Shown piece after piece: positions 21,985 through 44,957 of a DNA stretch of 64,000 nucleotides. The translations under genes were made by a program, and so were the position numbers. Source of the stretch: an uncultured Deferribacteres bacterium (GTDB taxonomy: Bacteria; Zhuqueibacterota; JdFR-76; BMS3Abin05); assembly GCA_964579725.1 (NCBI GenBank), contig CAZOHG010000006.1, positions 22,237 through 86,236 of the forward strand, given 5' to 3'. Each line of letters begins with the position of its first letter. Position 1 is the first letter of the stretch. A model generated the notes under the pieces. That model searched no databases and had not been told where the DNA came from. It worked only from the letters and a program-made list of their open reading frames with translations.

Positions 21985-22642
21985 GCGGGATTAAAGTCTT
22001 GTTTAACATAGAGATTGGCATGTTCTTCAGATGAAAAATGTACGGAGATGCATTTTATTTTGTACCTGTTGGGACATATCGGTGTACTTGATCCGCAAGG
22101 TTGGGGCATATCAATATTTGAAAAAATCTAATTGGATTTTTTAATTTCACATCTGCCTGGTTTGTCATTCTGTCAGAATCCGGTTCGGGGGTTTCAATGA
22201 TATTGCAAAATCAAACAAGATTCCTGCTGAATGACAGAAAACAACATGAGGACGAATACTTGACTGAATTCAATCTAAATAGCCAACAAAAACAGACCCG
22301 TTAAACTCAGCTCCAACGATTTCAGACAGGTCACTCCGAAAGAATCTGGATGTGTGGGTGGAAAGTTCTTCCCAAATAGAGCCTCTGGTAAATAAACCCA
22401 TTTGCCCAAACAAACTTAATTCCTCCAATTATTGAACGTTTGCCTTTTTTGCCAATCTACCCGCTTCACCTGTCTACTTCGGTGCGCTTGCACCATGCTC
22501 CACTTTCTCGCGTGGTTTTCTTCAAACCCATCCTTGCCCGTAACACCCCTGCCTATTCGTTATCTTTCCATCGGCTTGGGCAATAGGAGCTCTTCGTGCT
22601 CAGCTAAAACTCACGTCTCAGGGCTATTGTGCGTGCAGGGCA

Positions 22643-26843: not shown

Positions 26844-27555
26844 ACGAACCACTCCTCTTTTTGTTTGGCAATCCTTTTCATCTGCCGCCCGACAGATGCC
26901 ATTACCCATCACACTTAAATCAATGAAACATCCCCAAACCTCCGCGGCAAACACCACCATTTTATTTGAGCCGGAACGCCGTGAAACGAGCCGGGCTCTG
27001 GGTCTTCTGTTTAGCTTTCCAAAAACCGAATGAAATTTCTTGGAGGAATGAAACCAGTTTTGTCATCTTACATTTGGGACGGACCTTAAAGTGATTTTCA
27101 CCACGTTGAAACCTATTTCTATTCTATCGGCATTTTTTGTACAAATTGTATACCAAATTTTAAAATTTTTTCCTCCAATCTGTTCCCCCTAACCGATTGA
27201 TTTCATTCATTCAAAAAATAGCCTTGCCCGACCATCTTTTCACCCTAAGACAAAGTGGTCTATTCTTAGGACAAAATGACAGGAAGATGGTTAAAAATCG
27301 TGCAGTTTAATTCCGTTTTGCGGATATTTTACTCGGGAACGGAAGTGTGCGCGTACAAGAAGGGTGGCAGAAGCCGTAGGAAATTTATAGGTGAAATTTA
27401 TGCGGATTTTCCCTCGTGTTCTCTTTGAGCCATTGTTTCTTGAATGAAACAGTTTGACCAACTCAAAAATGGGAAAAGGGAATGAAAAATCCCTGCCCCC
27501 AACCGGAAACCCGGGGCCTTTTTCTTTCGGTTCGAAGGTCTTCTCTAAACGGCAC

Positions 27556-30255
27556 CTATTTTCTGCGTTCGTAAAGCAGCTTCAGCAGGGTTGGTAGAAG
27601 TGTGACCGACAGCACGAAACAGAAACCAATACCGATTGCCAGCAGTTCACCCAAACCGGCGTAGCCGCGGTAGCGGGACAACATCAGAGAACCGAAGCCA
27701 AGCAATGTAGTCACAGAGGTTAAAAAAATGGCTTTTCCGATACTGGACAGGACATACGGTAGGGAGCCCTTTCCTTCTATCTGGTAGCGGTGAATAATGT
27801 GAACGCCGTCGTCAATTCCAATCCCCAAAATCAGCGGAAAGCCCATGACGTTGACAATCGTCAGGGGAATGTGGAAAAGTCCCATGGTACCCAACAGCCA
27901 AATAGCGGACACCAACAGAGGCGTCATGGCCAAAAAGGTCGTCCCCACCTTTTTGAAATCCAGAAGTAACAAAAACAGAATAGCCAAAAAGGCAAACAGA
28001 AACGCCTGCTTCCCCTGTCGGGCAGCTTCGCGAACCAGCGATTTCATAAAAACCGGCGTTCCGGTGATGCCGGGGATGCCACGCGTTACGTTTTCAAGGT
28101 AGTTGGTTGTCACCAGGCCTTCCCAAAGATTTCGATTTGTGTAAATGAGGATTAAAAAATGGCGTCCGTCGCGACTGACAAAGCGATTTTTCACGGCCTG
28201 CGGCACTTGATCCATGGTAATGGACTCGGGATTGGCCATGCGAGCAATGCGTTTCCTCATGAACCTGACGAACAGGCTTTGGTACCGCGATAGGCGATTC
28301 AATGCTTCGGGGGAATCCTCCAATATGCGGAGGAGGCTCTGAATTTTATTTTCGCTGACCTGCTTGCCCGCCTCGTTTAACCCCAAAAATCGGTCACATT
28401 TGGCCACCACGCGATCCAATCCCCCCATAAACGCCAATTGAGCCATTTCGTCAATATTGTCCTGAAAACGCTGCAGTTCCGCCTTGAGGCTATTCAACGA
28501 AATGGGTTTTGGCGGCGGCACTTCTGCTTGAGCGCGCTTGATTTTTCTCACCCAGGGGCGGCGCTTCTGTTGTTTCGATTGAGGCGGTAAGAATTTCGTA
28601 ATGGATTCCACCAGCCCCACGGTAGAACGTGTGTCCAACATCTCGGTGTACCGATCGGCTTCCGCCAGACTGTTGGCGACTAACATGAGGTTGTCGGCAG
28701 ACAGGTTCATTCGCCTGGCAATTTCATTTTGGAGACGGACGGACTCCAGCCCCTTGGCTTCCAAATTCATGTAATTGCTGTTCATGTGCACCCGCGGCAT
28801 TTGAGTGACCAGAAAAAACGTGAGTAGAATGAGAATGCCGAGGCTGCCCCAGGGATGTGCCGAAAGGCTGTTGCCCAATTTCCCCAAAAAACGGAATTCC
28901 ATATTGACTTCTTTGAGTTCCTCCCTCTTCTTAAATTTCAGGCGGATTTTTTCCTGCAACACAAGAACGGCGGGCAGAAAAAATAAGGAAGCCGCCAGAC
29001 AGGTCAAAATTCCGATCCCGGCCACGACTCCCCATTCCCGAAAAGCCTCAAAAGAGGTCAACGTCAGCGTTAAGAACGCCACTGCCGTGGTCAAAGCACC
29101 CGTCACAACCCCCATTCCGACCCGCGAAAAGGCCTCCACAAGCGCCTGCTCAATGGAATGGCGCTTGTGCCGGAATTCGGAATAGGCCGAAATCAAATGA
29201 ATGGCGTAATCCACGCCAAGCCCCAGTAAAATAATGGACATAAAGGCCGTCATAATATTCAGGCGGCCAAAAATCATCTGTGCAATCCCGATGTCCCAGG
29301 TAATGCCGGCAGCCAACACAAGCATGGCAATCAGGGGGGCGGTTACCATGCGAAATGACAAAATAAAAACAACCAAAATGATTAAAAAGGCCATTCCCGT
29401 ATTGCGTTCGGTATCCTCCGTCCCTGTCACCATTTCGTCGCGGCTGACCACGTGCATGCCGGTCATGCCGAAATGTACGTCGGGGTACTGGCGACCGAAT
29501 TCCCGCAGCTTGGCGTCAATGGCATTCACCCCCTCTACCACGGGTTGAATATCGCTAATACTCATGGTAGGTGTCAGCATCATGAGAAGCATTTTTTTGT
29601 CGTTGGACAGATAATAGCCGCTTCCCGTGGTGAGACCGTTTACAGCTTTTGGCACAATTTTCGGTGCAGCGCTGGAATCGGCAACGGCAGCGCCCAGAGA
29701 GTTAACAAAGCCGAACATGCCGTCTAACGATTGGACGGCCTCTTTTTCCTGACGCGTGAGGCTTTCGGAACTGCTGGTGTATTCCGATTCGAAAAGATCG
29801 TTGACATGCCGCAGAAAAGGCACCAGATTGTAATCGGTAAACAACGGCGCCATTTTTTTCAGGTCGCTGACCTTTTCCAATAAAAGTCCGTGCTGATTCA
29901 CAAAACTGGTGTCGTATTTAAAATCTACCCGCCGCACCCATTTTTTCAGCGCGGCCAATTGGGGGGCCACCGCCTCCGCCACCTCTTCCACGCGGGTTTC
30001 GCTGGGCCCGTCTAACGCTACAATAATTTGCGTGGCGTCCCCAAATTCATCCAAAATTTTCTGAAAAGTCGCCACACTGGGGTCATTTTCAGGCAAAATG
30101 GCCATCCAGGTGCTGTCCATTCGAATTTTACCGGCAAAATAGCCCAAAATAATCGTGACCAAAAGGCCGGCGAAAAGCCACAAGAAATAATGCCTGTAGG
30201 TCGTGTGCCCCAACCAAGGGAAAAATCTTTTTCGCATCGGCTGTTCCTTTGTCAT
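27556..30255 (-). CDS. MMPL/RND-superfamily exporter (HpnN-like, two SSD halves)
   Basis: 899 aa with 12 TM in two 6-TM bundles and large periplasmic loops. It is the last gene of the TetR / LolA-like / beta-barrel / MMPL operon. Confidence 0.8.
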   Translation of the reverse strand: MTKEQPMRKRFFPWLGHTTYRHYFLWLFAGLLVTIILGYFAGKIRMDSTWMAILPENDPSVATFQKILDEFGDATQIIVALDGPSETRVEEVAEAVAPQLAALKKWVRRVDFKYDTSFVNQHGLLLEKVSDLKKMAPLFTDYNLVPFLRHVNDLFESEYTSSSESLTRQEKEAVQSLDGMFGFVNSLGAAVADSSAAPKIVPKAVNGLTTGSGYYLSNDKKMLLMMLTPTMSISDIQPVVEGVNAIDAKLREFGRQYPDVHFGMTGMHVVSRDEMVTGTEDTERNTGMAFLIILVVFILSFRMVTAPLIAMLVLAAGITWDIGIAQMIFGRLNIMTAFMSIILLGLGVDYAIHLISAYSEFRHKRHSIEQALVEAFSRVGMGVVTGALTTAVAFLTLTLTSFEAFREWGVVAGIGILTCLAASLFFLPAVLVLQEKIRLKFKKREELKEVNMEFRFLGKLGNSLSAHPWGSLGILILLTFFLVTQMPRVHMNSNYMNLEAKGLESVRLQNEIARRMNLSADNLMLVANSLAEADRYTEMLDTRSTVGLVESITKFLPPQSKQQKRRPWVRKIKRAQAEVPPPKPISLNSLKAELQRFQDNIDEMAQLAFMGGLDRVVAKCDRFLGLNEAGKQVSENKIQSLLRILEDSPEALNRLSRYQSLFVRFMRKRIARMANPESITMDQVPQAVKNRFVSRDGRHFLILIYTNRNLWEGLVTTNYLENVTRGIPGITGTPVFMKSLVREAARQGKQAFLFAFLAILFLLLLDFKKVGTTFLAMTPLLVSAIWLLGTMGLFHIPLTIVNVMGFPLILGIGIDDGVHIIHRYQIEGKGSLPYVLSSIGKAIFLTSVTTLLGFGSLMLSRYRGYAGLGELLAIGIGFCFVLSVTLLPTLLKLLYERRK

Positions 30256-30348
30256 TGTTTGGGAAGGAAATCCCGGCTTTTTTTCGCGCTTTGTGTCCGG
30301 TTCACCCCCGCCAGTGGCTAAACGCCCACGGGAGGAGTTTCCCCCGGC

Positions 30349-31515
30349 CTAAAAATAGACCCGCAACCGCACCAACCCCCCGTTCCCCAAATGGTCGGCG
30401 TAAACACTTCCGGTTTTTCCGTGGTAGTAATTGCCCAAAACCGTCAATTCCACATTTTCAAACACATTGTCTCGGATGAGGGGGATGACCGCCACGCTTC
30501 CGTCGGAAAGGCTTCCGACAGCCGAAAGCCCAATTGTCAGCAAATCCGTGGCCGGGTAGGACGCCAGAAAATAGACCTGATCGCGGGAGATGGCCTTTTT
30601 TTGCCCGATTAAAAATTGCATCCAATCGGTAAGCGTGTAGCGGCGGCGATTATTTTTACCCAATGTGGAATGAAAGGCCTCCGCCAAAAGATAACATCCG
30701 TTTCGGAAGGTGTAATCGGCGCCCAAAAGTCCCTCCGTAAATCGGCCGCTTTTTTTCATTCGGTTGGATGCCCACTCGCCCCACACCCCGACGCCCAAAA
30801 TTTGACCGGCAAAATCGCCCCCAAACAGACGCCGGTTTTCGCGAATCGATTGAAACCGCCGAAAATCCGTGAATTCCCATTGAGTTTCCACTGCAATGAG
30901 GGAGTAGTCAAAATGACCCAATTGTCCCTTAAAACGCACAAGCCTACCCCAATTTTTCAAATCCTCCCCCGGCGTCACCAGTCCCACCACGGTGTACCGG
31001 GTGCCAATGGGAATATCCACGCGAACCGCATTGTGTCCGGGTTGTTCGTACGTGGGATCAATCAGATTTTTCATATTCAACACATCGGTGGGATTCCAGG
31101 CGTAGCCGGTTCCGAGGGAAGTTTGCTGCCGGCCCACGGTCAGGTCGCCGAATCGAAAAGACAGACGCACAAAGGCGTTGTCCAGGAAAAGACTGTCCTT
31201 GTACGAAAATCGAAAAAACGACCGCACAAATGTCGGAACTGATTTTGTCAGGCCTTCGGGCAGGTAATCCAGGGCGTTCCAGCGGGTCTTTCCGGTGTAG
31301 CGAATGAAATCGAAGTTACCGCCAAAGGAAACCTTCTCCGAAGCCTGCGCCCCTAAATCCACGCGCAATTTGTTGGAATTCAAAAAATAGGTGTGATTTT
31401 TGAGGTGAATGCCCATGATTTGCGGCTCAAAATAGCCGCTCACAGAAACGGTTTGTGCTGTCCCGCTAATCGGCAAAAAGCCGAAAACCAACCAAATCCC
31501 AATCCACCGCTTCAT
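30349..31515 (-). CDS. outer-membrane beta-barrel protein (DUF1302-like) of the MMPL operon
   Basis: Signal peptide 'MKRWIGIWLVFGFLPISGTAQ'. Alternating amphipathic beta-strands and a C-terminal '...LRVYF' (terminal aromatic). The family call is approximate. Confidence 0.5.
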   Translation of the reverse strand: MKRWIGIWLVFGFLPISGTAQTVSVSGYFEPQIMGIHLKNHTYFLNSNKLRVDLGAQASEKVSFGGNFDFIRYTGKTRWNALDYLPEGLTKSVPTFVRSFFRFSYKDSLFLDNAFVRLSFRFGDLTVGRQQTSLGTGYAWNPTDVLNMKNLIDPTYEQPGHNAVRVDIPIGTRYTVVGLVTPGEDLKNWGRLVRFKGQLGHFDYSLIAVETQWEFTDFRRFQSIRENRRLFGGDFAGQILGVGVWGEWASNRMKKSGRFTEGLLGADYTFRNGCYLLAEAFHSTLGKNNRRRYTLTDWMQFLIGQKKAISRDQVYFLASYPATDLLTIGLSAVGSLSDGSVAVIPLIRDNVFENVELTVLGNYYHGKTGSVYADHLGNGGLVRLRVYF

Positions 31516-32282
31516 TTTTTGAGCCCCCGTTCGGTGAACAGGGCGTCGCTTAGCGGCACGTCGTACCGAATGGCCGTGATTTCCACAACCGTTTGGGTGT
31601 TGTCCAACAGATTTTTCATGACCATTTTCTTGGGCGTCGGGATGCCGTCAATGGTTTCGATCTCCGAAAGAAACAGCCGTTTCACACAACGGCTCGCGTC
31701 GTGTTCGTCAAAATAATCGATCTGAACCGGGACAAAGTTCTTTTTTTCCACCCACAACACCAGCCGGGAGTAACTGGAGGAACTGCCCTTCTTTCGGGTT
31801 AATGCCAATTTGTAGCATTTTTCCCCGTTCCTTTTTTCCTCCCCCAAAAGTTTGGCTGTAAAATCTGTCAGGAATGTGTTGCCGGCTCCCATGTCCTCGT
31901 AGGAGAAATCGCTGCCCTCCATTTTCTGCCTTTTGGCGTGAGTGGCCAATTTTCGGACGCGATTGGTGCGAGGGAAATAAATCCAAATGTCGTCCGCATT
32001 GTTGAGCATTAAAATCGCCTGTGCCCTTAAGCGAGCGGGCTGCTGGTATTTCATGAGGGTTTTTTCCCCGTGATTTTTGCTGTACACTTTGTACTCAAAT
32101 GTGCGGAGTCGGCCTGTGGTAGTGGTGATGGTCATCCGCATGGTTCCCTCGGACGTAGCGGGATTCATGATTTGGGTTACTTTTTTGACAATTTCTTCAG
32201 CCGTCAACGCCTGAGCCCGAAGCGACAGGGGAAAATAAAAACCGGCCGAAAAAATCAGCAAAAAACTAAGAATCCGTTTCAT
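31512..32282 (-). CDS. outer membrane lipoprotein-sorting (LolA-like) protein
   Basis: Start chosen at MKRILSFLLIFSAGFYFPLSLRAQA (signal peptide). The track's longer ORF (to 32381) would overlap the TetR stop by 4 nt and lacks a signal peptide. The LolA-like fold call is by composition and by recurrence of this gene next to MMPL pumps. Confidence 0.55.
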   Translation of the reverse strand: MKRILSFLLIFSAGFYFPLSLRAQALTAEEIVKKVTQIMNPATSEGTMRMTITTTTGRLRTFEYKVYSKNHGEKTLMKYQQPARLRAQAILMLNNADDIWIYFPRTNRVRKLATHAKRQKMEGSDFSYEDMGAGNTFLTDFTAKLLGEEKRNGEKCYKLALTRKKGSSSSYSRLVLWVEKKNFVPVQIDYFDEHDASRCVKRLFLSEIETIDGIPTPKKMVMKNLLDNTQTVVEITAIRYDVPLSDALFTERGLKK

Positions 32283-32377
32283 ACGAACACTCCTTCCGTT
32301 TTGTAAACGGGTTTTGGACTCCTCGAAAAATTGGTCAAAAAAGGCAGTTTTTTTGACCGACGCTTCGGTCAAGTCAA

Positions 32378-32989
32378 TCAAATGCGAATCCCTGTCATGT
32401 AGGCCTGGTACATGGTTTCCACCGCCTCCTTGAAATTAAAAACGGAATGGTCCAAAACCCACTGCAACATGAGTCCGTCCCAAGACCCCAAAATGGCGGA
32501 CGCCGTTAAAAGAGGATTCAAATTTTTCCGAAATCGCCCCTGGTGAACGCCCTCGGTCAAAATCGACACCAGCAGATTTCGATAGTCAGCGTACAGACGA
32601 CGCATGTCGAAAACCGTTGTCTCTTTGGCTTTGACCGAGCGGACGCCCTCTGCCCACACATCGAACATAATTTCCATAAAATCAAGAGGAAACTGCTCCA
32701 ACGCTTCCACAAAACCAACCAAAATGACGTGAATTTTCTCCGCAGGATCGGTAACCTTGAAAAGCTTCCGTGCCAGCACTTCCTCCGCTTTTTCGAAGAT
32801 GAGCAAAAAGCCCTCGTGCATCATTTCTTCTTTGCTCCGGAAGTATTCGTAAAGGGTACCCTTCCCCACGTCGGCCGCTTCGGCAATATCAGACATTCGG
32901 GTGCTTGCCAATCCCTTTTTAGCAATAACCCGCAAAGCAGCCAAAAGAATTTTTTGACGCTTGGCCTCTTTGTCTACAATTTTCGCCAT
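32378..32989 (-). CDS. TetR/AcrR-family transcriptional regulator
   Basis: HTH 'LASTRMSDIAEAADVGKGTLYEYFRSKEE'. It is the first gene of the MMPL operon. Confidence 0.85.
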   Translation of the reverse strand: MAKIVDKEAKRQKILLAALRVIAKKGLASTRMSDIAEAADVGKGTLYEYFRSKEEMMHEGFLLIFEKAEEVLARKLFKVTDPAEKIHVILVGFVEALEQFPLDFMEIMFDVWAEGVRSVKAKETTVFDMRRLYADYRNLLVSILTEGVHQGRFRKNLNPLLTASAILGSWDGLMLQWVLDHSVFNFKEAVETMYQAYMTGIRI

Positions 32990-34574: not shown

Positions 34575-36458
34575 CTACGCGTCGGAACGGTCTTTTCCTC
34601 TCACAATTAAAATCGGGATCGTAATGCCGTGCCGCACTTTGTCGATGGTTGTGCCGTGTACCCAATCGCTGACGCCGTGGTGGCCGTGCGAACCCGCGAC
34701 CAACAGGTCAAATCCATTCTCATTAATTGCCTTAATCAATTCGGTGGCTGGATCGCCGTAAAGAAGTTCCGTCTCCACCGGCAGATCGCGTTCTTCGATT
34801 TCTCGAGCCAAATCTTCCAAATACTGTTCATCCTCCCGACTGTGAAGACTGGAGCTCCGATCTCCGTACACCAGAGTGCCGGGGGAATCGGCCACGTGCA
34901 GCAAGGTGAGTCTGGATTGGTTGCGCCGCGCCACCGAAATGGCCGCGGAAACGATCTCCGCGTCGCGAGGCGAATTTTCAAGCGCAACGGCAATATTTTT
35001 GAAGGTTATTGGCCGCAGTTTTTGAATCACACGCTGGCCTTTTTTGACGATTCCGCTCTCCCACTGGCGGCTGACCCCAAAAAACGGCGCTAACGTGAGG
35101 TACAACAAAACCCCGAAAATGGCCGCAACCAACGGCACAACCGTTATCCACAAAAACAGAGGGGCTCCGGCAAGCCAGTGGGACAATTCCTCAAACGCCA
35201 ACTTCAGGTTCAGCACAATAATAATGGTGGCAATGACCCAGGCAAGTAGTTTCACCCAGAGCCGATTGGCAAAATTCCCCATCTTTTTGGAATCGGATGT
35301 AAAGTGAATGAGGGGCACCGTGGCAAAAGGAAGTTGAAGACTCAAAATAACCTGGGACAAAATCAGGAGCCGGTAGGTGCCTTCACTCCCGGAAATGGAA
35401 ATCACAACAACGGCCGGTAGGAGAGCCAGCGAACGGGTAATTGCTCGACGCAGCCAGGGCTGGAGACGAATGTTCAGGAAACCTTCCATAATAATTTGAC
35501 CAGTGAGCGTGCCGGTAAGCGTCGAACTTTGTCCGGCGGCAATCAGGGCAACAGCAAAGGCAATGGGAGCAATGTGCGTACCCAAAATGGGTTGCAGCAA
35601 TTGGTGCGCCTGCTGGATCTCCGTCACCAAAATGCCCCGGGAGAAGAAGAGGGCGGCCGCCATTATGAGAATGGCTGCGTTGACAAAAAAAGCGGCGTTC
35701 AGCGCCACTACCGAATCAATAAGGTTGAACTTACACGCTTCCGCTTTGCCCGTGTACGTATTGGAAACAGCCCGCGTTTGAACCAGCGACGAGTGCAAGT
35801 ACAAATTGTGGGGCATAACGGTGGCGCCAATAATGCCAATGGCAATGTACAGTGCCGACGGCGGCAAATGGGGGACAAATCCCGCTGCAATGCCGCCCCA
35901 GTCCGGTTGAGCCAGAAAAATTTCAATTAAAAAGCAGGCACCAATGGTAGCAATCAGGGACACAATGAAGGCCTCCATTTTCCGCATGCCCAACCGCTGA
36001 ATGGCCAAAAGCAGGAACGTATCGCCAGCCGTAATCAAGGCGCCCCAAAGTAAGGGAAGGCCGAAAAGCAAATTGAGTCCGATGATGGTACCCAACAACT
36101 CTGCCAAATCTGTGGCTGCAATGGCAATTTCCGCCAAAACCCAAAGAAAAATATTAATTGGCCTGGGGTACTCCCGGCGGCACCCCTGCGCAAGGTCGTA
36201 CCCCGTAACAATGCCCAGTCGCGCCGAAAGGGTCTGCAACAGCACGGCCATGAGGTTGGACATTAAGAGTACCCAAATGAGCGTGTAGCCGAAGCGTGCT
36301 CCTCCCTCAATGTCTGTCGCCCAGTTTCCGGGGTCCATGTAACCGACGCTCACCAAATAGGCAGGGCCAATAAAAGCCAAAAGGCGGCGATACCAGCCGC
36401 GCTTCTTAACGGAAACCGTTCCTTGCAGGTTTTCCAGTTCCTTTTTTTCCACGTCCAA
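34575..36458 (-). CDS. mntH: NRAMP-family Mn2+/Fe2+ transporter fused to a C-terminal universal stress protein (UspA) domain
   Basis: Nramp signatures 'GPAYLVSVGYMDPGNWATDIEGGARFGY' and 'TAGDTFLLLAIQ'. The C-terminal ~150 aa '...LTLLHVADSP...FDLLVAGSHGHHGVSDWVHGTT...' is a Usp domain. Confidence 0.8.
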   Translation of the reverse strand: MDVEKKELENLQGTVSVKKRGWYRRLLAFIGPAYLVSVGYMDPGNWATDIEGGARFGYTLIWVLLMSNLMAVLLQTLSARLGIVTGYDLAQGCRREYPRPINIFLWVLAEIAIAATDLAELLGTIIGLNLLFGLPLLWGALITAGDTFLLLAIQRLGMRKMEAFIVSLIATIGACFLIEIFLAQPDWGGIAAGFVPHLPPSALYIAIGIIGATVMPHNLYLHSSLVQTRAVSNTYTGKAEACKFNLIDSVVALNAAFFVNAAILIMAAALFFSRGILVTEIQQAHQLLQPILGTHIAPIAFAVALIAAGQSSTLTGTLTGQIIMEGFLNIRLQPWLRRAITRSLALLPAVVVISISGSEGTYRLLILSQVILSLQLPFATVPLIHFTSDSKKMGNFANRLWVKLLAWVIATIIIVLNLKLAFEELSHWLAGAPLFLWITVVPLVAAIFGVLLYLTLAPFFGVSRQWESGIVKKGQRVIQKLRPITFKNIAVALENSPRDAEIVSAAISVARRNQSRLTLLHVADSPGTLVYGDRSSSLHSREDEQYLEDLAREIEERDLPVETELLYGDPATELIKAINENGFDLLVAGSHGHHGVSDWVHGTTIDKVRHGITIPILIVRGKDRSDA

Positions 36459-36846: not shown

Positions 36847-37809
36847 ATGTGGCTTTTCTGGATTCTTCTTGTTTTTGTAATTTTGATTCTTCTGTGGGCG
36901 TTCCTTTCTCTAAAAGAACGTCGGCCGGACCAACTTTTGTTGGTGGAAAAGAAGGGGCAAATTCACCCGTACCTCAAGCGGTGGTACTGGAGCCGTTCTG
37001 TTTTGGCGCTTCCGGCCACCATTCGAACCGTTTCCACAGAGGTCAAGGCCCAGGCAAGAGGGAAAATCGACGTCGTGGCGCAGGTGTCGATTTCTTTCTT
37101 CCCTGACCCGAATCAGGTCCAAAATCTTATTCGGGTGGGCGGGTGGCAACCCGATGCTGTCGAAAAAACGGCTGCCGAACTGGCGGGAACCGTTCAGGGA
37201 CTGGTGGGGGAAGTGGTGGAACAAATGGACGTTACTCAGGTAACGCGTGAAAAATTGGGGGAAGTGCTACGGAATCGCTTGTCCGATTTGGCGCCCGGCT
37301 TGGGGGTAACCATTGCGTCCGTGGTGGTTTCCGCAGCAGAGGCGGCCGACAAAAAAATTGCGGACGCCATTCGTCAGAAAGAAGAAGCCCGTATTCAGGA
37401 AGAAACCGAGCGAGCCAATCAACAAGCCCGCATTGCCCGCGAAAAACTGCGCCTCAAAGCAGACGACACCATCGCCCGCATGAAACACGAAACAGAAATG
37501 GCACGGCTGCGTCTCAAAGAATCCGAAGAGTTAGCAGCGGCGGCATTGGAACAAAAAATTCTCGAAAAAGAAGCCGAGAAAAAACGGTTGAATCTGGAAT
37601 TGGAAAAGGAAGAGGTGGGACTTTTGGCACAATCGCCCCAACTTTTGTTACTGGCTCCCCAGCTTTCCCGCTTAATGGAAGCCAGCCAGCAGCTCAAAAA
37701 TGCGCGCACCGTCATTTCTCTCTCCCCCGAAATTTCAGAAGGGTTGCCGCGCCTATTGCAGTCCCTTTTGGACACGCTCCAGCGGGGACAGGCGACAACG
37801 GAAACCTAA
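36847..37809 (+). CDS. SPFH/band-7 (flotillin-like) membrane protein with coiled-coil tail
   Basis: Start at MWLFWILLVFVILILLWAFL (N-terminal TM; GGAGG at 36836-36840). The C-terminal half is E/K/R-rich heptads ('EEARIQEETERANQQARIAREKLRLK...') as in flotillin/YqiK. A 40-nt gap separates it from the 1871-aa gene. Confidence 0.6.
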   Translation: MWLFWILLVFVILILLWAFLSLKERRPDQLLLVEKKGQIHPYLKRWYWSRSVLALPATIRTVSTEVKAQARGKIDVVAQVSISFFPDPNQVQNLIRVGGWQPDAVEKTAAELAGTVQGLVGEVVEQMDVTQVTREKLGEVLRNRLSDLAPGLGVTIASVVVSAAEAADKKIADAIRQKEEARIQEETERANQQARIAREKLRLKADDTIARMKHETEMARLRLKESEELAAAALEQKILEKEAEKKRLNLELEKEEVGLLAQSPQLLLLAPQLSRLMEASQQLKNARTVISLSPEISEGLPRLLQSLLDTLQRGQATTET

Positions 37810-37848: not shown

Positions 37849-40800
37849 ATGTCGGTAGTCCGATTTAAAGAATCGGCTCCTTCCCTTGTGGGAGAAATCA
37901 GCCGAATGACGGCGGAATCGGGGGTTCCCGCTGCCGAGCGCGTCGATTTTCACATTGGCAACCCGGTACGCGACGCTGCCCTCGATCGGCTGTACAATGC
38001 CCTGCTCTCGGGGGCTTCCTTTCGCGACGCCCACGCGCGCGATTTCTCAGAAGAGGCTTTTTTACAGGAGTGTGACTCCCCCGCTCTCCGCGAGGCTTTT
38101 CAATTGCTTTTTGACACCGCCCGAAAATCCGTGGCCTACGCTCCTCAGGGCGGTTTTTTGCCCGCTCGTCCCGGTACGCTCGCCCGTCAAATTCAGGCGC
38201 GTTTCGAACAAATCGAATCACCTAAAATTCCCTACGACTTCGGCACCTCCTCAGGAAAACCGGAGCTGGCTTTTGCTTCAGGCGGCAGGTGGCAGGCACT
38301 TGCCCTTATTTTTCAATTCATTGAAGAAGATGTGCAGGGGGAAAAAAGGGGAACCCTTGTTTTGGGAGATTCCCCCCGTCCCCACCTCTTTTCACCTCGC
38401 ATTCACGCGCCCGAGCGGTGGGAAAAATCCCGTCCCTTGCAGGAGCGCCTACAGGCGGCTCTCCGCACCGACGACCGGTTTGTCCTCTTGTTGGAACAGT
38501 GGCCGGAACGTGACCGTGAGCTTTTGGCGCACTGGCTTGAAGCCAACGATCTGTTCCTCATTGAAATGAACCAAAGCGGCAACGCCGCCAGCCTGTTGAC
38601 TTTCCCCGAAATGAAAGAACGGGGGCTTCGGATTTTGGCACCCGATTTTATTCATCCTGCGTTGCGTTTCTCCAGTCTGGCCATTTTGTTGGCGCCTTTC
38701 GAGTGGATTTTGCACTTTAATCGCCTGCATTTCAAAAAGATGGGCACCCCTTCCGCCAGCGAAATCAAATTGCTCAGTTTTTTTCTGACGGAAAACGGCC
38801 AGTTCCACACCCAACGCTGGCAGCTGTTTCAACAGGAAGTGAAAAATGCCGTAGCCGACTCTGTTGAGGAGGACTTTCCCCCTGAAGAAAGCGCCCCGGC
38901 TCTCGCGTCGGTTTCTCGTTTCGTGCGCCGGGTCGAAAAGCAAGCCCACCGACTTTCTCAACTGGGAACCCAAATGGCCGAGAAATGGGGGCAAAAAACA
39001 GCCCGCTTTTCCGACATTTCCATGGAAAATTCCCGTGCCTTGGGGCCTTGGGACCCGTTCGGGGGAAAATCCCAGGCCGACGTGGTGCAGCACTTCTTTG
39101 CCCGCTTAAACAACCCGAATTTGAGCACCGAATTAACGGCGTCGTTTTTGAGCACATTTCAGGCGGTGCACCCGGAATACGAACCGGAACACCTCGTTTT
39201 GGTCAGCGGCTCGGCCAGAACCGCACTGAGTTTAATGGCCTCCGCGTGGAACATTGAGGAGGTGGTGGTTCCCGATTTTAGCTGGACGGTGGGAGACGCC
39301 TTTCCGCAGGTGACGTCCGTGCCCCTCAAACCGGATTTTCAATTAGATGCCGAGCGGTTTGTCCGAGTTTTGCAAGCCAAATGTGAAACCGACCCCGCGT
39401 GGCCCCGTCGTGGCGCTGTCATTTTGAACAATCCTCACAATGCCACGGGACAAATCTGGCCGCCGGAAGCGGTGGAACCCATCTTGCTCTTCTGCTTTCG
39501 GAACGGAATCCGCGTAATTGACGACCTGTCGTACGCCGATGTGGTTATTGCCTCACCCGAAGAACGGCGCACAAAAGTCCCGGTGCCGAGCTTAAAAAAA
39601 ATCGCCCTGAATCTGAAAAAGGAGGGGCGTATTCGCGGCTCGCACCTGCGCCATTTGGTCACCATTCAGTCGATTTCAAAAACCGATTGCAAGGCGGGTG
39701 CGCGTCTCGCCGTGTGTGACATTCCCCACTCAGCCGACCGCAGGCAATTCCACCAAAAAATGGCCCATTTTTCGCCCAATCTTTTAGCCATTCTGCTCAG
39801 CCTTCTTTTTTACCGCCGCGGTGCCTGGCACGTAGCCCGTTTTTGGGCCCGTCGGGACGAAATCCTGTGGCAGCGTTCCCGAGCACTAACAGAGGCTTTT
39901 GCGGAACTCCCCCCCGAGCGGAACCCTTACGGCTTGCGTTACCTTCCGCCGGCGGGTGCCATGTACCCCCAATTGGAAATTACCCATTTGCCCACGGGGC
40001 TTTCCGCCGAGCGGCTGGCCCAGGCTTTGGCACGTCTGGGAATCGGGTTGATTCCACTGACCAATTTTTCGCACACGCTGGAGGGCTTTTCTCAAGCCAA
40101 TCGAACGTTTCGCCTGACTCTCGGAGGTGAGCTTGATTTGGCTACCATTTCGGCAAAGGTACGACGGCTTGTGGAAATGCTGTCGGAATTGGTACGTCGT
40201 CAGGCGGAAAATCGCCATTTCTACCGGCTGCGCAACGGCCGTGTGGCGGAAGCCGATTTTTTGGCCTTGAAAAAACAAACACTCACGCGAGTTGACGTAC
40301 AGGCAGCGGAACAACTAACAGCCGTACGGGAGGCCGCCCGAAAAAACTTTCGCCGCTATTTGCCGTCTTGGGCACAAAAAAGTGAGCAAACCGACGCTCT
40401 TCTGCAGGAATTTGTCGACCGTTATTTGCCCGAACGTTGGTCCTTTTTCCGCACCAAATTACAGGATTTCGCGCTGGTGCAGGCAGAAATTTCGCAGCGC
40501 GTTCGGCAAGGTGGGTCGGAGGACATTCTGAACGATTTCCAAATGGAGCTGTTGCCACCGGAACCCCGAAAGCGGGTCTTTCAGTACGAACGGCGTCTTT
40601 TTGACCGCACGGTTCACCCCACTCAAATGTACGCATTGGACGTTGAGCAGCTTTTCGTGCAGCAGGCGAAACACCTCACCCTGCCCAATTTTTACGCACA
40701 GGTTCCTTCTGAACAGATTTTGGCCGCGCTTCTACGAGAATTTGTGGGCGGAAACGTCCCCATTTCTTCCGAAAGGGAAGCGGAGGAAGCGGTTTGCGAT

Positions 40801-43464
40801 CTGGAATCCATTCAACTCATGGAAACCGTCCGGACGCTTCTGTACGCACGGCGTGAGGAGACCGTTCTGTCCATGTGGGGTGACTGGGACGGCAGCACAC
40901 GCCCCAGCGGTCAGGGGCACACCCTGATTTCGGGCCCGCTCATTGCCAATATTCGCGCGCTGGCCCGTTTGGTGGCGGAATTTGAACGTCAGGCGCTGCT
41001 CTCTCCCGAGCAACGCAAAGCTCTTGCAGAGCTGGGCTCCATTGAAAAACGCATTCAGGATTTTCGCCAAACCCTGCAAAAAATCACGCGCCTCACCGGA
41101 ATTTTAGAGAAAAAATACCGAAAGACCATTCCGCTCGAATACTCTGCCTCCCGTCTCAAACGCGGGCTGCGGAAAATGGGCCTGCTCCGAGATCCGCTGA
41201 AAACGCTGTGGAAACACAACGACCGAAACGAACGCCGCATGCAGCAGTACCGGCGCAAGCGGTCTTTTGAGATCAAGCAGCTTTTTTCGGTCAATCGCTC
41301 TCTAACCGAATTGGTGCGGGCAGTGGCAGAGCAAAATCCTGACCGGCTAAAAGAAGGCGACTGGCCGGTGCTGTTAGGGCTCTACAAAAATTATTTAAAA
41401 CGATTTTACCTCACGCCCCGGATTCACCAAAAAATCATCTTGGACAAAGACCAATTTGCTGTGGACACCACCGTCACCAATTTGGTGGAACTAAACGTTT
41501 TGGCGGCGCAGTCCGGGCTGTTCGGATTCGTGTTCACGGTGCAGGTCAGCATGGCCAGTAACCCCCGCGCCATTTTGGCTTTGTACCGAAAATTGAGGGA
41601 AGAACGAGCCCGCGCTCTGCGGGAAAATCCTTCCCTGAATTTGCCGGAAATCAAGGTAACGCCGCTCTTCGAGGAATTGGAAGCTATTCAAAAAATACCC
41701 GATTTTTTGAATGAAATTTGGGACTACGCCAAAATCAGCCGCCAATTGCGGCAGCCGCCTGAAGACCGCTTTTTAGAAATTATTGGTGAATTTTTCATTG
41801 CCGGGTCGGATTTAAGTCAACAGGTTGGACAACTCAAGGCCTACTCCCTCTACCAGGACGCGCGGGAATTGTTGGACCGCTGGCTGTGGCAGAAAAATCT
41901 CTTAGGAAAAATACGGATTAAATTCGGGTCGGGAGAATCCCCCCAACGGCAGGGCGGCTACTACCGTCCTTCGGCAGGAAGCCCCGCGCTGGACGGCACC
42001 CGGCTCCAGAAAGAGGCGCACGCCCTAAACCTAACACCCGTACAGCTTCGCGTGTTCCAACAGGCACGGTCGCCCCTCTCGGGAATTTTGAGCCACAGCG
42101 ATTTTCGTACCTTTCAGTCCAACGTCATGGAACATTTGCGCTCCCGGTCGGCGGAAGAGTTGGCCCACGTCTTTTTCCACATCGGGACAAAACAACAAGA
42201 TTTTTGGAAACGGATTCTCCCCACGGCCCGGGCCCTTCACGAGAAAAACGATGCCAATTGGGCCAGGATCCGACCGACCATTCGCCGCGAAGACAGCCCC
42301 ATTTTTCTGGAATTTTTGGACGTGGTGCGCGAAAATTTTGTACAAATTGTGTACGGGCGTCCCGAAGACATGACCGGCATTCACGTGGTGTCCTATTTTC
42401 TCTCCCGCACCCTTTTTCCGCTTCGCGATCGGCCTACGGTGCGCCCCAGCCGTGAACCGGCTCTAAACCGCAGCCGGGAAATCGTGGAGCGACTCTCCAG
42501 CACGCTCCCGCTGGCCACTCACGGAACACTTCTGCGGGCCATTGGGCACAACAAAGCCCAAACCTTCCTTTTGGGAGTCAACCAATTCACGACGGGAGTA
42601 TTTCGGGGGTTGGTTCAGTTTTTGGAACGGCACGGGGCTGCCGGGCCGGGTTTGGTCCGCGAACACATTTTGCCACACCTGCCGGTGCACGACATTTTGG
42701 ACACCCTGCGCCTTTTCCACAATACAGACCTTACGTACGTCCGGGCCATTGAGGATGCCTTTCCGTCGGACAACTCGGCGCTACAGGCTTTGCGCGAAGA
42801 AAACAGCGTCCTTTCGGAATTTATTCCCCTTTTTCAACAAGAACTTCTACGCCGAAACGGCCTGGACCTGCACGGTGTTGTCCCCTCCCGACCGGAATTG
42901 GATCGCCTGCTGCCGTTTTTTCGCCCCGATTTGGCCGTGCTTTTGCAACGGAACCTGTTTAACACCAAAGTGGAACAAGCCCTTCCCGAAGCGTACCTGC
43001 CGGTAAGCCAACGGGCCGTTTTTGAGAAAGAATTCGGCAAGCGCACCGTTATTTGCGAAAATCGGCAGAAAATGTGGAAAATGCTGCGTGAGCCCATTTC
43101 CGAGCAGGTTAAAAGCTTTATTGAATTGGCACGGGCGGTTCAATCCCTTTTTACGCGGGAAACGGCTCCCGAGCTACCGGGAAGCACGGTTTCTCGCGGA
43201 CGCATTGAGCGTCTTGCCTCACAGATCAACGACATGCTGCGCAACGTGGTGGACGACAGCATGCGTCAGTTTTTGCTGACGGCGGTTCAGTATCTTCTCT
43301 ACCTCCCGGAAAACATGAAGGACGTACCGGAAGAAGTTTTGCTTGCCCTACGGGACATGGAGAAAATCCTGCGTATTGAGGAAGAAGCTCTCTCCCGCGA
43401 CGACCAAAAACGCTTGATGGCCCTATTCCTGAAAATGGCACGTGTCAGCGGAAACTGCGGTTAA
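37849..43464 (+). CDS. 1871-aa cytoplasmic multidomain protein: degenerate aminotransferase-fold domain, then PLP-aminotransferase (class I/II) domain, then divergent PEP-carboxylase-like C-terminal region
   Basis: Aminotransferase motifs in order: 'VDFHIGNPV' (aa 33-41), 'LVLVSGSARTALSLMASAW', 'ILNNPHNATGQIWPPEAVEPILLFCFRNGIRVIDDLSYADV' (N527), 'SISKTDCKAGARLA' (K611). A lysine-less pseudo-copy lies in aa ~40-400. PEPC-like motifs follow with native-like spacing: 'HPTQ' (H923), 'SMWGDWDGSTRP' (aa 1010-1015, cf. 'SWMGGDRDGNP'), 'FGSGESPQRQGG' (aa 1359, cf. 'FHGRGGSIGRGGG'), 'LRAIGH' (aa 1562, cf. 'LRAIPW'), and a C-terminal Gly. No signal peptide. Confidence 0.5.
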   Translation: MSVVRFKESAPSLVGEISRMTAESGVPAAERVDFHIGNPVRDAALDRLYNALLSGASFRDAHARDFSEEAFLQECDSPALREAFQLLFDTARKSVAYAPQGGFLPARPGTLARQIQARFEQIESPKIPYDFGTSSGKPELAFASGGRWQALALIFQFIEEDVQGEKRGTLVLGDSPRPHLFSPRIHAPERWEKSRPLQERLQAALRTDDRFVLLLEQWPERDRELLAHWLEANDLFLIEMNQSGNAASLLTFPEMKERGLRILAPDFIHPALRFSSLAILLAPFEWILHFNRLHFKKMGTPSASEIKLLSFFLTENGQFHTQRWQLFQQEVKNAVADSVEEDFPPEESAPALASVSRFVRRVEKQAHRLSQLGTQMAEKWGQKTARFSDISMENSRALGPWDPFGGKSQADVVQHFFARLNNPNLSTELTASFLSTFQAVHPEYEPEHLVLVSGSARTALSLMASAWNIEEVVVPDFSWTVGDAFPQVTSVPLKPDFQLDAERFVRVLQAKCETDPAWPRRGAVILNNPHNATGQIWPPEAVEPILLFCFRNGIRVIDDLSYADVVIASPEERRTKVPVPSLKKIALNLKKEGRIRGSHLRHLVTIQSISKTDCKAGARLAVCDIPHSADRRQFHQKMAHFSPNLLAILLSLLFYRRGAWHVARFWARRDEILWQRSRALTEAFAELPPERNPYGLRYLPPAGAMYPQLEITHLPTGLSAERLAQALARLGIGLIPLTNFSHTLEGFSQANRTFRLTLGGELDLATISAKVRRLVEMLSELVRRQAENRHFYRLRNGRVAEADFLALKKQTLTRVDVQAAEQLTAVREAARKNFRRYLPSWAQKSEQTDALLQEFVDRYLPERWSFFRTKLQDFALVQAEISQRVRQGGSEDILNDFQMELLPPEPRKRVFQYERRLFDRTVHPTQMYALDVEQLFVQQAKHLTLPNFYAQVPSEQILAALLREFVGGNVPISSEREAEEAVCDLESIQLMETVRTLLYARREETVLSMWGDWDGSTRPSGQGHTLISGPLIANIRALARLVAEFERQALLSPEQRKALAELGSIEKRIQDFRQTLQKITRLTGILEKKYRKTIPLEYSASRLKRGLRKMGLLRDPLKTLWKHNDRNERRMQQYRRKRSFEIKQLFSVNRSLTELVRAVAEQNPDRLKEGDWPVLLGLYKNYLKRFYLTPRIHQKIILDKDQFAVDTTVTNLVELNVLAAQSGLFGFVFTVQVSMASNPRAILALYRKLREERARALRENPSLNLPEIKVTPLFEELEAIQKIPDFLNEIWDYAKISRQLRQPPEDRFLEIIGEFFIAGSDLSQQVGQLKAYSLYQDARELLDRWLWQKNLLGKIRIKFGSGESPQRQGGYYRPSAGSPALDGTRLQKEAHALNLTPVQLRVFQQARSPLSGILSHSDFRTFQSNVMEHLRSRSAEELAHVFFHIGTKQQDFWKRILPTARALHEKNDANWARIRPTIRREDSPIFLEFLDVVRENFVQIVYGRPEDMTGIHVVSYFLSRTLFPLRDRPTVRPSREPALNRSREIVERLSSTLPLATHGTLLRAIGHNKAQTFLLGVNQFTTGVFRGLVQFLERHGAAGPGLVREHILPHLPVHDILDTLRLFHNTDLTYVRAIEDAFPSDNSALQALREENSVLSEFIPLFQQELLRRNGLDLHGVVPSRPELDRLLPFFRPDLAVLLQRNLFNTKVEQALPEAYLPVSQRAVFEKEFGKRTVICENRQKMWKMLREPISEQVKSFIELARAVQSLFTRETAPELPGSTVSRGRIERLASQINDMLRNVVDDSMRQFLLTAVQYLLYLPENMKDVPEEVLLALRDMEKILRIEEEALSRDDQKRLMALFLKMARVSGNCG

Positions 43465-43745
43465 AAAAGGGCAACCATTTCGCGCCCCGCTTGCACGGTT
43501 TTGACCTGAAAATCTCAGGCGGCGTGAGTCGAGCGGGTTTCCCCAAAAATTTTTGAAGAAAACGCTTCGATTGCCGTTCTCTGTGACACGCGTTGTTCCA
43601 AATTGAATGGTCGACAAGACACCACCTAACACAGGAGGCAGAAATGAATCCCAAAATTTACGTCATTAGCATGGGTGCTGAAAAACCCAAAGGCGTTCCC
43701 GGATGGCCCAACGCCGAATTAGACCCCGCCCAACGCGCCTAGGAA

Positions 43746-44957
43746 ATGTTTCAAAAATTGGTCGAATACTTTCCCTCCTACTCTTTTGTGGGCGGTGAAC
43801 TAATGGAAGCCACCGAATCGGATTTTCAGAAATTTGCAGCCCGTATCGACAAGGAAGACCCCGCAGGGGTCGTGATTTTTGGCCTGGCCATTCCACACCG
43901 CTCCGTCAAAATGTTCGGGCAGCTCCGAAAACCCATGCTGTGGGTCAACGACATTTACGGCGGAGAGCTGTACTTTTTCGACGCCATGGAGGTCGGTCTG
44001 GAAAATCACTGGCCCTTTGTGGCTCTCAGTTCCTCGCGATTTTCCGACATTGGGGCCAAACTGCGCTATTTTGACGTCATTCACGCCCTCCGGCATTCCC
44101 GCATTCTGGCCGTTCGTGACCGAGATTACCCAAAGGATTACGTTGAAAAAATCAAAAATAAATTGGGAACAGAAATTTTGGTTCGGGATCACGAGGCGTT
44201 TAATAAGGTGTACGGCACGGTTCCCGAAACGGAAGCCAAAGAATGGGCCAAACGGTGGATTGCCGAGGCGGAAAAAGTCGTTGAACCGCAATTCGAAGAC
44301 ATTTTGGCGGGTGCCAGAACCTACCTGGCACTCAAAAAAATGATGGCGCTCGAAAAGGCCAACGCCGTGACCGTCGATTGCCTGGACCTGGTTTACAAAA
44401 AGAAGATTCCGGCCTACCCGTGCCTGGCTTTTTTCCAGCTTAACAACGAAGGCTCCACCGGAATTTGCGAAGCCGACATCGATTCGGCACTGACTCAATT
44501 GCTCATCCGGTTTCTCAGCGAGCGTCCCGGTTTCGTGTCGGATCCGGTGATCGACCAGGGCACCGGCCAGATCATTTACGCCCATTGCGTAGCCGCTTCC
44601 AAAATGAAGGGTCCCAGAAGCGAACCGATGCCCTACATTTTGCGTTCACACGCCGAAGACAATTCCGGGGCATCCGTTCAGGTGAAAATGACCCCGGGCG
44701 AAATCATGTCCACCATTAAATTCGACATTAAAACCGAGCGGATTGCCTTCCACAAAGGGAAAATTGTAGGGAATGTGGACACCGACCGCGCCTGCCGCAC
44801 CAAGGTTGCTGTGGAAGTAGATACCGCAGCCGTTGCCCGCAACTACCAGGTGTCCAAGTTCGGCTGGCACCGCGTGTCCTTTTACGGCGATTGGGAAACC
44901 GAAATCCGCGAATTAGCCCAACTCATGCAGTTGGAATTTTGGGACGAACAAAAGTAA
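43746..44957 (+). CDS. FucI/AraA-like sugar isomerase-family protein (COG2407-like); probable true start at 43644 interrupted by an in-frame TAG
   Basis: The C-terminal half 'YAHCVAASKM...VQVKMTPGEIMSTIKFD...KFGWHRVSFYGDWETEIRELAQLMQLEF' resembles the L-fucose/L-arabinose isomerase C-domain. A strong RBS (GGAGG 43634-43638) plus ATG 43644 gives MNPKIYVISMGAEKPKGVPGWPNAELDPAQRA-TAG(43740-43742)-E-MFQKL..., in the same frame. Confidence 0.35.
   Translation: MFQKLVEYFPSYSFVGGELMEATESDFQKFAARIDKEDPAGVVIFGLAIPHRSVKMFGQLRKPMLWVNDIYGGELYFFDAMEVGLENHWPFVALSSSRFSDIGAKLRYFDVIHALRHSRILAVRDRDYPKDYVEKIKNKLGTEILVRDHEAFNKVYGTVPETEAKEWAKRWIAEAEKVVEPQFEDILAGARTYLALKKMMALEKANAVTVDCLDLVYKKKIPAYPCLAFFQLNNEGSTGICEADIDSALTQLLIRFLSERPGFVSDPVIDQGTGQIIYAHCVAASKMKGPRSEPMPYILRSHAEDNSGASVQVKMTPGEIMSTIKFDIKTERIAFHKGKIVGNVDTDRACRTKVAVEVDTAAVARNYQVSKFGWHRVSFYGDWETEIRELAQLMQLEFWDEQK

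Follow-up and report, generated by a model that had tools for sequence, protein, structure and literature searches.

A three-module protein joining aminotransferase-like domains to a divergent PEP carboxylase-like domain, and its SPFH gene neighbour, in an uncultured Deferribacteres bacterium

The fusion gene and its family

The stretch of DNA analysed here (the window: 64,000 nucleotides, positions 22,237 to 86,236 of the forward strand of contig CAZOHG010000006.1, assembly GCA_964579725.1) comes from an uncultured Deferribacteres bacterium and contains, as the longest open reading frame (ORF) of its region, a gene at 37849..43464 on the + strand (ATG start, stop codon included) that encodes a protein of 1871 amino acids (aa). 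In this protein, aminotransferase-like modules are fused to a domain resembling phosphoenolpyruvate (PEP) carboxylase (PEPC), and a gene for an SPFH/Band-7 protein lies directly upstream on the same strand. The initial annotation of the gene, made from the sequence alone, had already described the fusion and had suggested that it could turn PEP and bicarbonate into aspartate or, alternatively, that its PEPC-like part is a non-catalytic scaffold. All features of the fusion gene given below lie on the + strand.

The protein belongs to a broad family. When 5.8 billion protein clusters were searched, we obtained 98 matches, most of them 1850-1910 aa long and 32-67% identical to the query, which are collinear with 99-100% of it and originate from independent NCBI, JGI, ENA and Logan assemblies. 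Where these homologues bear any name it is just 'PLP-dependent aminotransferase' (PLP, pyridoxal 5'-phosphate), and all 98 carry a precomputed PF00155 match. Scanning one genome per GTDB species, we found relatives in 381 genomes; the best 80 loci out of these 381 matching species genomes were fetched and underlie all locus-level counts in this study, and the architecture is the same across them. By their labels, the 80 loci come from Ignavibacteriota, Melioribacter or Stygiobacter (25), Chloroflexota (Anaerolineae; 18), 'Bacteroidota' or 'Cytophagia' (11), Calditrichota (10), Acidobacteriota (Bryobacterales; 5), KSB1 (2), 'Deferribacteres' (2), Kryptoniota (1) and Marinimicrobia (1), with 5 unclassified, and the gene is also found in metagenome-assembled genomes (MAGs) assigned to Melioribacter and to Caldithrix. 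The search for the same architecture that the initial annotation had recommended therefore yields full-length homologues across several phyla.

Scans of the whole protein against Pfam, NCBIfam and, with phmmer, the PDB detected the aminotransferase only. The family alignment shows conservation minima at aa 301-400 and aa 801-850, so that the protein divides into three modules, the best conserved of which is the C-terminal PEPC-like part (column identity 0.55-0.74); the GC content is even along the whole gene. We consider it nearly certain that the gene encodes one cytoplasmic polypeptide composed of an arm with a lysine-less aminotransferase-like module, a class I PLP aminotransferase, and a PEPC-superfamily domain of ~1000 aa. 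The second and third modules are joined by a helical connector (aa 791-915; 40219..40593), which is helical in both of the AlphaFold models described below and includes the least conserved stretch of the protein (aa 801-850, column identity 0.20).

Kinship and fold of the PEPC-like domain

The C-terminal ~1000 aa are a genuine, very divergent PEPC-superfamily domain, nearest to the archaeal type (PepcA or atPEPC; PF14010; structure 3ODM from Clostridium perfringens). The PEPC-like domain occupies aa 916-1871 (40594..43461) and was modelled from aa 855 onwards with AlphaFold on a 64-sequence alignment, giving a pLDDT (predicted local distance difference test) of 87 and a pTM (predicted TM score) of 0.88. 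The model has a TIM-barrel core with the topology of archaeal-type PEPC, extended by ~500 aa of helical insertions and a C-terminal extension. When it was compared with the PDB using Foldseek, all 24 matches at E<=1e-3 were PEP carboxylases, among them the enzymes of maize (5vyj, 1.4e-10) and E. coli (1jqn, 4e-9) and the archaeal-type enzyme (3odm, 2.7e-8), while pyruvate phosphate dikinase (PPDK) and pyruvate kinase came next in line, neither being significant. The likeness is therefore specific to PEPC and goes well beyond a common TIM barrel, in agreement with what the initial annotation had expected of a structure prediction.

As judged from profile searches, the sequence link to PEPC is transitive and runs through stand-alone relatives of the domain. 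A HMMER search of 1.84 billion representative proteins, with an 11-row C-terminal alignment as the query, gave 247 matches; among the 150 matches listed, nearly all were the fusion family or its fragments, and two stand-alone relatives of 940-1040 aa, P0231 (E=2.8e-27) and P0244 (E=8.8e-23), were also recovered, the former scoring above the PF14010 gathering score (32.8 vs 25 bits). Profile A6, which combines the fusion family with six stand-alone relatives, had a single match among 177,635 PDB sequences, namely 3odm_A (E=6e-7, two collinear stretches). The domain is 19% identical to 3ODM. The profile made from the fusion family only (A1) matched aminotransferases only among PDB sequences, with no PEPC at E<=10. 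Finally, when the family was compared by hhalign with E. coli Ppc as a single sequence, the register came out right but without significance (probability ~1%, P=0.05-0.07), and the result was used solely for motif equivalences.

The stand-alone clade (P0231 and P0249, also P0244 and P0246-P0248; loci L082:6892-10008 and L083:1851-4850) is rare, with 5 found in 5.8 billion clusters. It has in common with the fusion family the motifs HPSQ, W(I/V)D(Y/F)DG, PLFE, AGSD, KLGTGE..RQ and ARAI, and its proteins might serve an uncultured lineage as PEP carboxylase.

Judged from sequence and predicted fold, archaeal-type PEPC resembles the fusion domain in that TPRI, PL(F/V)E, A(G/R)SD, RDR and RAI align and in that both have a GxGxxxxR loop that does without R581 of E. 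coli. It differs in being much shorter (~537 aa, against ~1000 aa for the fusion domain, which also falls below the PF14010 threshold): the fusion domain adds a ~160-aa helical insertion after WGDWDG and a ~250-aa C-terminal extension, and the fusion protein further adds the aminotransferase modules and the pairing with an SPFH gene. The bacterial and plant Ppc enzymes (PF00311; 1JQN, 5VYJ, 3ZGE) are more distant from the fusion family. They share with it the collinear series HPTx, DxDG, (I/V)SMA, PLFE, xSD, Gly loop, RxP and LRAI, a similar spacing of these eight motifs, and a C-terminal Gly; however, the profile-to-sequence comparison is not significant, R581 and R253 of E. coli are replaced by Ser and Trp, respectively, and residues of the allosteric Asp/malate site are not identifiable in the fusion. 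Thus the kinship to PEPC that the initial annotation had read from motifs is borne out by fold, motifs and the 3ODM match, but the nearest type is the archaeal one and not that of E. coli and plants.

Catalytic motifs of the PEPC-like domain

The landmarks of E. coli Ppc recur in order along the window protein: HPTx (H138 in E. coli, H923 here), DxDG (DRDG 252, DWDG 1012), (I/V)SMA (474, 1233), PLFE (503, 1272), xSD (YSDS 541, GSDLS 1319), the Gly loop (GRGG 580, GSGES 1360), LRAI (712, 1562) and the C-terminus (883, 1871). Those quoted in the initial annotation all stand where it had placed them, namely HPTQ at H923, SMWGDWDG at 1008-1015 (W1010 being 87 aa past H923), FGSGESPQRQGG from F1359 (436 aa past H923), LRAI at 1562-1565, and the C-terminal G1871, and we can add the collinear motifs VSMA at 1233, PLFEE at 1272 and AGSDLS at 1318. 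Two of its E. coli reference points need correction: SWMGGDRDGNP lies ~109-114 aa past H138, not 94, and the loop reads ...GRGGAP, not GGGP.

In the E. coli enzyme, we take H138 to be catalytic, E506 and D543 to be the Mn2+ ligands, and R396, R587, R699 and R713 to be arginines that bind phosphate or bicarbonate. The HMMER alignment to 3ODM (profile A6) covers all catalytic residues of the domain but H923; equivalences for H923 and to E. coli are by motif alignment. On this basis, H923 (RTVHPTQ; codon 40615..40617) matches E. coli H138 (TAHPTE), and R1191 (TPRIHQ; 41419..41421) aligns to TPRI (R105) of 3ODM. The metal-ligand positions are E1275 (PLFE; 41671..41673), equivalent to PLVE (E188) in 3ODM and to E506 of E. 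coli PLFET, and D1321 (AGSD; 41809..41811), equivalent to ARSD (D225) and to D543 of E. coli YSDS. The Gly-rich loop K1358-F-G-S-G-E-S-P-Q-R1367 (41920..41949) corresponds to LGCGSLPFR (R269) in 3ODM and GRGGSIGR (R587) in E. coli, R1526-D-R1528 (42424..42432) to NRDR (R365, R367) and GSRP (R699), and R1563 (LRAI; 42535..42537) to PRAI (R413) and R713 of E. coli LRAIP. An alternative counterpart of E. coli R396, 'AVDTTV', was dropped in favour of TPRIHQ (R1191), following the HMMER alignment to 3ODM.

Neither the family (40-64 sequences, drawn from several phyla) nor the stand-alone relatives show any variation at H923, R1191, E1275, D1321, R1526, R1528 and R1563. R1367 is invariant or nearly so, with no variation among the 48 aligned C-terminal sequences or the stand-alone relatives, and K1358, G1360, G1362 and E1363 are likewise invariant or nearly so. 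Of the E. coli residues that the initial annotation had singled out, H138, R396, R699, R713 and the metal ligands thus have invariant or nearly invariant counterparts, but R581 is replaced by S1361. This arginine is also absent from the loop of 3ODM (LGCGSLPFR), an active archaeal-type enzyme, and S1361 is therefore no argument against activity. Because no part of the protein is better conserved than the PEPC-like domain, and because the catalytic residues of this domain are invariant or nearly so across phyla, the domain is, as far as sequence can tell, likely to be active.

Two invariant motifs specific to the family lack any obvious equivalent in E. coli Ppc, WGDWDGSxRPSGQGH (aa 1012-1027; 40882..40929) and HNDRxERxMxxxRxxR (aa 1123-1138; 41215..41262); E1128, M1131 and R1138 of the second are invariant in the stand-alone relatives too. 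Both might contribute to a modified active site or to an interface.

The aminotransferase domain and the lysine-less module

The catalytic class I/II aminotransferase domain, recognised from PF00155, invariant residues and Foldseek, covers aa 401-790 (39049..40218). PF00155 matches aa 430-758 with E=1.6e-16 and 60.9 bits (gathering cut-off 19.7) over profile positions 51-346 of 361; the domain has no first ~50 profile positions of its own. K611, the PLP Schiff-base lysine of SISK (codon 39679..39681), is invariant in alignments of 40, 64 and 24 sequences, and so are N531, D559, Y562, S610, R619 and R755 in those of 24-64 homologues. Going by their motifs, N531, D559, Y562 and R619 provide the Asn, Asp, Tyr and Arg ligands of PLP, and R755 is the carboxylate-binding Arg. 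The PF00155 assignment and the PLP lysine claimed in the initial annotation are both upheld, and the motifs that it quoted are in place (HIGNP 35-39, NNPHNATG 527-534, IDDLSY 557-562, SISK with K611). It had also called their order and spacing correct for an aminotransferase; the IGNP (aa 36) lies ~490 aa ahead of NNPHNATG, and the spacing is correct only if the pseudo-copy that separates them is counted as an insertion.

An AlphaFold model of aa 1-830, comprising both aminotransferase-like modules, reached pLDDT 89 and pTM 0.87. Its best Foldseek match was LysN (2egy, 5e-14), followed by aspartate aminotransferase (AspAT), kynurenine aminotransferase (KAT) and 1-aminocyclopropane-1-carboxylate (ACC) synthase, with target TM scores of 0.63-0.72. 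Class I aminotransferases (PF00155; Thermus AspAT 1BJW, LysN 2EGY, KAT/Bna3 3B46) are thus similar in fold, and NPxNxTG, DDxxY, SxSK, GxR and the C-terminal Arg are present in the fusion. They differ in that their homodimer is apparently replaced by intramolecular pairing with a lysine-less copy, and in that the catalytic domain of the fusion lacks, besides the N-terminal profile positions, the loop of the Tyr70 type. In NCBIfam, this domain gave matches of ~20-35 bits to models with cut-offs of ~290-650 (GntC, DapC, PatB, CobD and AspAT).

What the catalytic domain lacks appears to be found further upstream. The N-terminal segment (aa 1-73; 37849..38067) has invariant columns at H35-I-G-N-P39; this HIGNP is the 'GxP' arm motif of aminotransferases and precedes the N-module, while the catalytic domain has no counterpart of the segment. 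The N-module itself (aa 74-330; 38068..38838) is, from hhalign and AlphaFold, a probable lysine-less copy of the aminotransferase large domain. When aa 74-327 were aligned with aa 403-669 the hhalign score was 29.4 (P=0.0055), and 21 null comparisons with reversed, block-shuffled and unrelated profile segments all scored lower (maximum 25.6). The register is structurally sensible: ASGG pairs with VSGSARTAL, FFIEAN with VIDDLSY, and K611 with a non-lysine. At column 298 of the N-module, a Lys is found in at least 90% of homologues and a Met in the window protein, which indicates that a lysine there is not essential. In the AlphaFold model, the alternating beta/alpha order of the N-module (pLDDT >90) is compatible with an aminotransferase-like copy. 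The pseudo-copy proposed in the initial annotation is therefore favoured by a comparison above all nulls and by compatible secondary structure, support which we regard as modest.

An 11-residue Tyr loop, KSVAYAPQGGF, is kept in the N-module (Y97, G101 and G102 invariant) and deleted from the catalytic domain. In classical AspAT dimers, Tyr70 enters the active site of the partner subunit. By analogy with Tyr70, the asymmetry of the Y97 loop would be the pattern expected of an intramolecular pseudo-dimer with one live site, and the N-module is probably a dead pseudo-copy that would form such a pseudo-dimer with the catalytic domain. The two are separated by a low-confidence linker (aa 338-400; 38860..39048; pLDDT 39-59, column identity 0.29-0.33).

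The SPFH partner gene

The gene directly upstream (36847..37809, + strand; 320 aa) encodes an SPFH/Band-7 protein, as recognised by PF01145 and orthologue alignment, and goes beyond what the initial annotation had noticed at this locus. Its start is fixed by the orthologue alignment, with a GGAGG ribosome-binding site (RBS) before the ATG at 36847. The product consists of an N-terminal transmembrane (TM) helix, the SPFH domain, a coiled coil and a conserved C-terminal LLLLxPQLxRLxEASQxLKNARTV; the hydrophobic N-terminus reads MWLFWILLVFVILILLWAFLSL, and basic residues (KERR) follow just past the TM helix. PF01145 matches the window protein with 29.7 bits (cut-off 23.6) and 19 of 27 orthologues (best E=3.8e-11), and the only matches in the PDB were erlin and stomatin, neither significant.

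This partner is found directly upstream on the same strand in 70 of the 80 loci by ORF clustering and in 74 by tblastn, and several partner-less loci end near the start of the large gene, with the upstream gene out of view. The gap between the two genes is mostly between -3 and ~100 bp. The SPFH gene is the only conserved neighbour of the fusion gene: the remaining neighbours in the window (Nramp-Usp, GH114, TetR, MMPL, SSF and others) each recur in at most 4 of the 80 loci. A third neighbour 'family', seen in 20 loci, was rejected as a set of promiscuous sigma-54 response-regulator/AAA+ domains scattered in position and strand. An anti-phage defence reading was likewise set aside, as PADLOC gave no match for the fusion or the SPFH gene.

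The fusion and SPFH genes form an operon and are co-transcribed. Tight operons of a membrane-anchored SPFH/Band-7 protein with a partner are familiar from HflK/C-FtsH, stomatin-NfeD and flotillin-NfeD; unlike in those systems, the SPFH protein is paired here with a soluble metabolic enzyme of 1871 aa and not with a protease or NfeD, and the SPFH protein of the window is itself divergent from the known ones. By analogy with these pairs, the fusion enzyme is probably a client of a membrane SPFH scaffold with which it would interact physically.

Proposed function and alternative explanations

Based on these features, we propose that the PEPC-like domain would carboxylate PEP with bicarbonate to oxaloacetate, and that the K611 site would aminate this unstable product to aspartate, with glutamate as the probable donor, giving on one polypeptide the net reaction PEP + HCO3- + Glu -> Asp + 2-oxoglutarate + Pi. 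The dead N-module would replace the second subunit of the obligate aminotransferase dimer and contribute its Tyr97 loop to the one active site that is live; with such a pseudo-dimer, the oligomeric state could be determined by the PEPC-like part without any conflict of symmetry. The SPFH partner, the bulk of which is predicted to be cytoplasmic, would tether or enclose the enzyme at the membrane. We put forward this conversion of PEP to aspartate on a single polypeptide as a possibility with somewhat less than an even chance of being correct. Coupling is favoured because oxaloacetate is the one metabolite common to PEPC and a class I transaminase, and because the fusion has become fixed across 381 species genomes. 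Circumstantial support comes from the metabolic maps published for M. roseus and C. abyssi, in which Pyc, Pck and Mae are included and PEPC is not, and from the presence of the gene in MAGs of the two genera. According to a 2020 review, archaeal-type PEPC is inhibited competitively by aspartate, which would give the proposed enzyme a built-in product feedback.

Several observations weigh against this proposal. The window protein has no match to PF00311 (PEPcase), the profile by which the initial annotation had meant to check the domain, or to PF14010 (PEPcase_2) at E<=1, and the Pfam matches among homologues are weak (PF14010 in 4 of 48, best E=0.0085; PF00311 in 2 of 48, best E=6.4e-4). The ~500 extra residues and the invariant motifs specific to the family (WGDWDGSxRPSGQGH, HNDRxER, DTTV, QSN and NQLTTG) could reflect a changed reaction. 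No specificity subfamily in NCBIfam, AspAT included, fits the aminotransferase domain, and the term 'aspartate-type' is therefore taken purely from the logic of the fusion. Furthermore, the stand-alone relatives lie amid housekeeping genes (GAPDH, MetRS, RecJ), with no aminotransferase or SPFH neighbour, from which it follows that the coupling is not ancestral to the PEPC-like clade.

Some of these points would fit a different chemistry on the same folds, in which PEP or a related enol-phosphate would be converted through a metal-stabilised enolate into another 2-oxo acid and then into an amino acid other than aspartate. This would agree with the low identity to 3ODM, with a domain roughly double the length of archaeal-type PEPC, with invariant family motifs that PEPCs do not have, and with the separate clade that the 247 relatives among 1.84 billion representative proteins form. 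It would also agree with an aminotransferase in no known specificity class, the commonest weak NCBIfam matches of which include GntC (22 of 24 members) and CobD (18 of 24), enzymes with unusual or phosphorylated substrates. However, every residue aligned to the catalytic motifs of archaeal-type PEPC is kept, and to our knowledge the members of the PEPC superfamily characterised so far are all PEP carboxylases, so that we judge an altered chemistry to be unlikely.

The aminotransferase-fold part might instead act as a PLP-based amino-acid sensor, in the manner of MocR or GabR, and confer on the carboxylase an allostery that archaeal-type PEPC otherwise lacks. The N-module, one of two aminotransferase-like modules, already appears to be catalytically dead, and GabR-type sensor domains keep the PLP lysine, so that its presence would be compatible with sensing; but the full catalytic and PLP-binding set, including the carboxylate-binding R755, is invariant where a sensor would be expected to drift more, and we find this explanation quite improbable. 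The opposite division of labour, with the PEPC-like region as the scaffold or pseudoenzyme already considered in the initial annotation, oligomerising the aminotransferase or docking it to an SPFH assembly, would make sense of the large helical insertions and the conserved SPFH partner. It is nevertheless very improbable, given that no other region of the protein is so well conserved and that the His motif, both residues at metal-ligand positions and four arginines of the PEPC-like region vary neither between phyla nor in the stand-alone relatives. Lastly, an assembly chimera or a mis-joined gene pair, which the initial annotation had named as a risk and for which we found no evidence, is already refuted by the collinear 1850-1910-aa homologues from independent assemblies (98 cluster matches, 381 species genomes), the common architecture of the 80 loci and the uniform GC content of the gene.

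Novelty and implications

Literature searches found no description of a PEPC-aminotransferase fusion or of an SPFH-linked one, and a 2020 review of the PEP-pyruvate-oxaloacetate node distinguishes four PEPC types and mentions no aminotransferase fusion. The C-terminal ~1000 aa have no model in Pfam (2025) or NCBIfam (2026); SUPERFAMILY or Gene3D may already flag the barrel. What is new here is the divergent PEPC-superfamily clade, its fusion with a probably pseudo-dimeric aminotransferase, and the pairing with an SPFH gene, without these being categorically new.

If active, the domain would represent a deeply divergent fifth clade of PEPC, invisible to standard Pfam and NCBIfam annotation, in a gene that is fixed in hundreds of species from abundant sediment, soil and subsurface lineages. 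In the most extended form of the proposal, a fifth PEPC class would be fused to a single-site pseudo-dimeric aminotransferase that aminates oxaloacetate in place, and the ~210-kDa enzyme would be the client of an SPFH ring or cage, forming a membrane carboxylating metabolon with an anaplerotic role in Ignavibacteriota, Calditrichota, Anaerolineae and their relatives; we offer this complete picture as conceivable but doubtful. Were the domain active, an overlooked CO2-fixing anaplerotic step would alter the carbon-flux reconstructions of those lineages. The architecture would also provide a natural example of a carboxylase coupled directly to a transaminase, of an obligate homodimer turned into an intramolecular pseudo-dimer, and of an SPFH scaffold with a metabolic enzyme in place of a protease. 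Because cultured species exist in Melioribacter and Caldithrix, the proposal is testable.

Other genes of the window

The gene downstream of the fusion (43644..44957, + strand) has an apparent ATG at 43644 preceded by an AGGAGG RBS (43634-43639), and an in-frame TAG at 43740-43742; the listed ORF starts at 43746. Its orthologue in locus L003 (6989-7339, 68% identity) has a Ser at the position of the TAG, and the 32 upstream residues are conserved. The TAG could be a sequencing error, the mark of a pseudogene or a case of recoding. The product has a weak sulfoquinovose-isomerase-like match in NCBIfam (E=1e-8, far below the cut-off).

Divergent to the SPFH-fusion operon lies a gene (34575..36458, - strand) for a 627-aa Nramp metal transporter with a C-terminal universal stress protein (Usp) domain, which is also found beside the operon in locus L002, with a weaker match in L005. 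Further upstream, four genes on the - strand (27556..32989) encode a TetR regulator, a LolA-like/DUF1329 protein, a 388-aa protein without a Pfam match, and an MMPL/RND-type transporter. Two more proteins end in a Por_Secre_tail sorting domain of the type IX secretion system (T9SS), namely a 1421-aa protein with many CarboxypepD_reg repeats (22695..26960, - strand) and a protein with a CrtC/lipocalin domain (55758..57422, - strand). These sorting domains point to an organism of the FCB group, consistent with the nearest homologues of the fusion.

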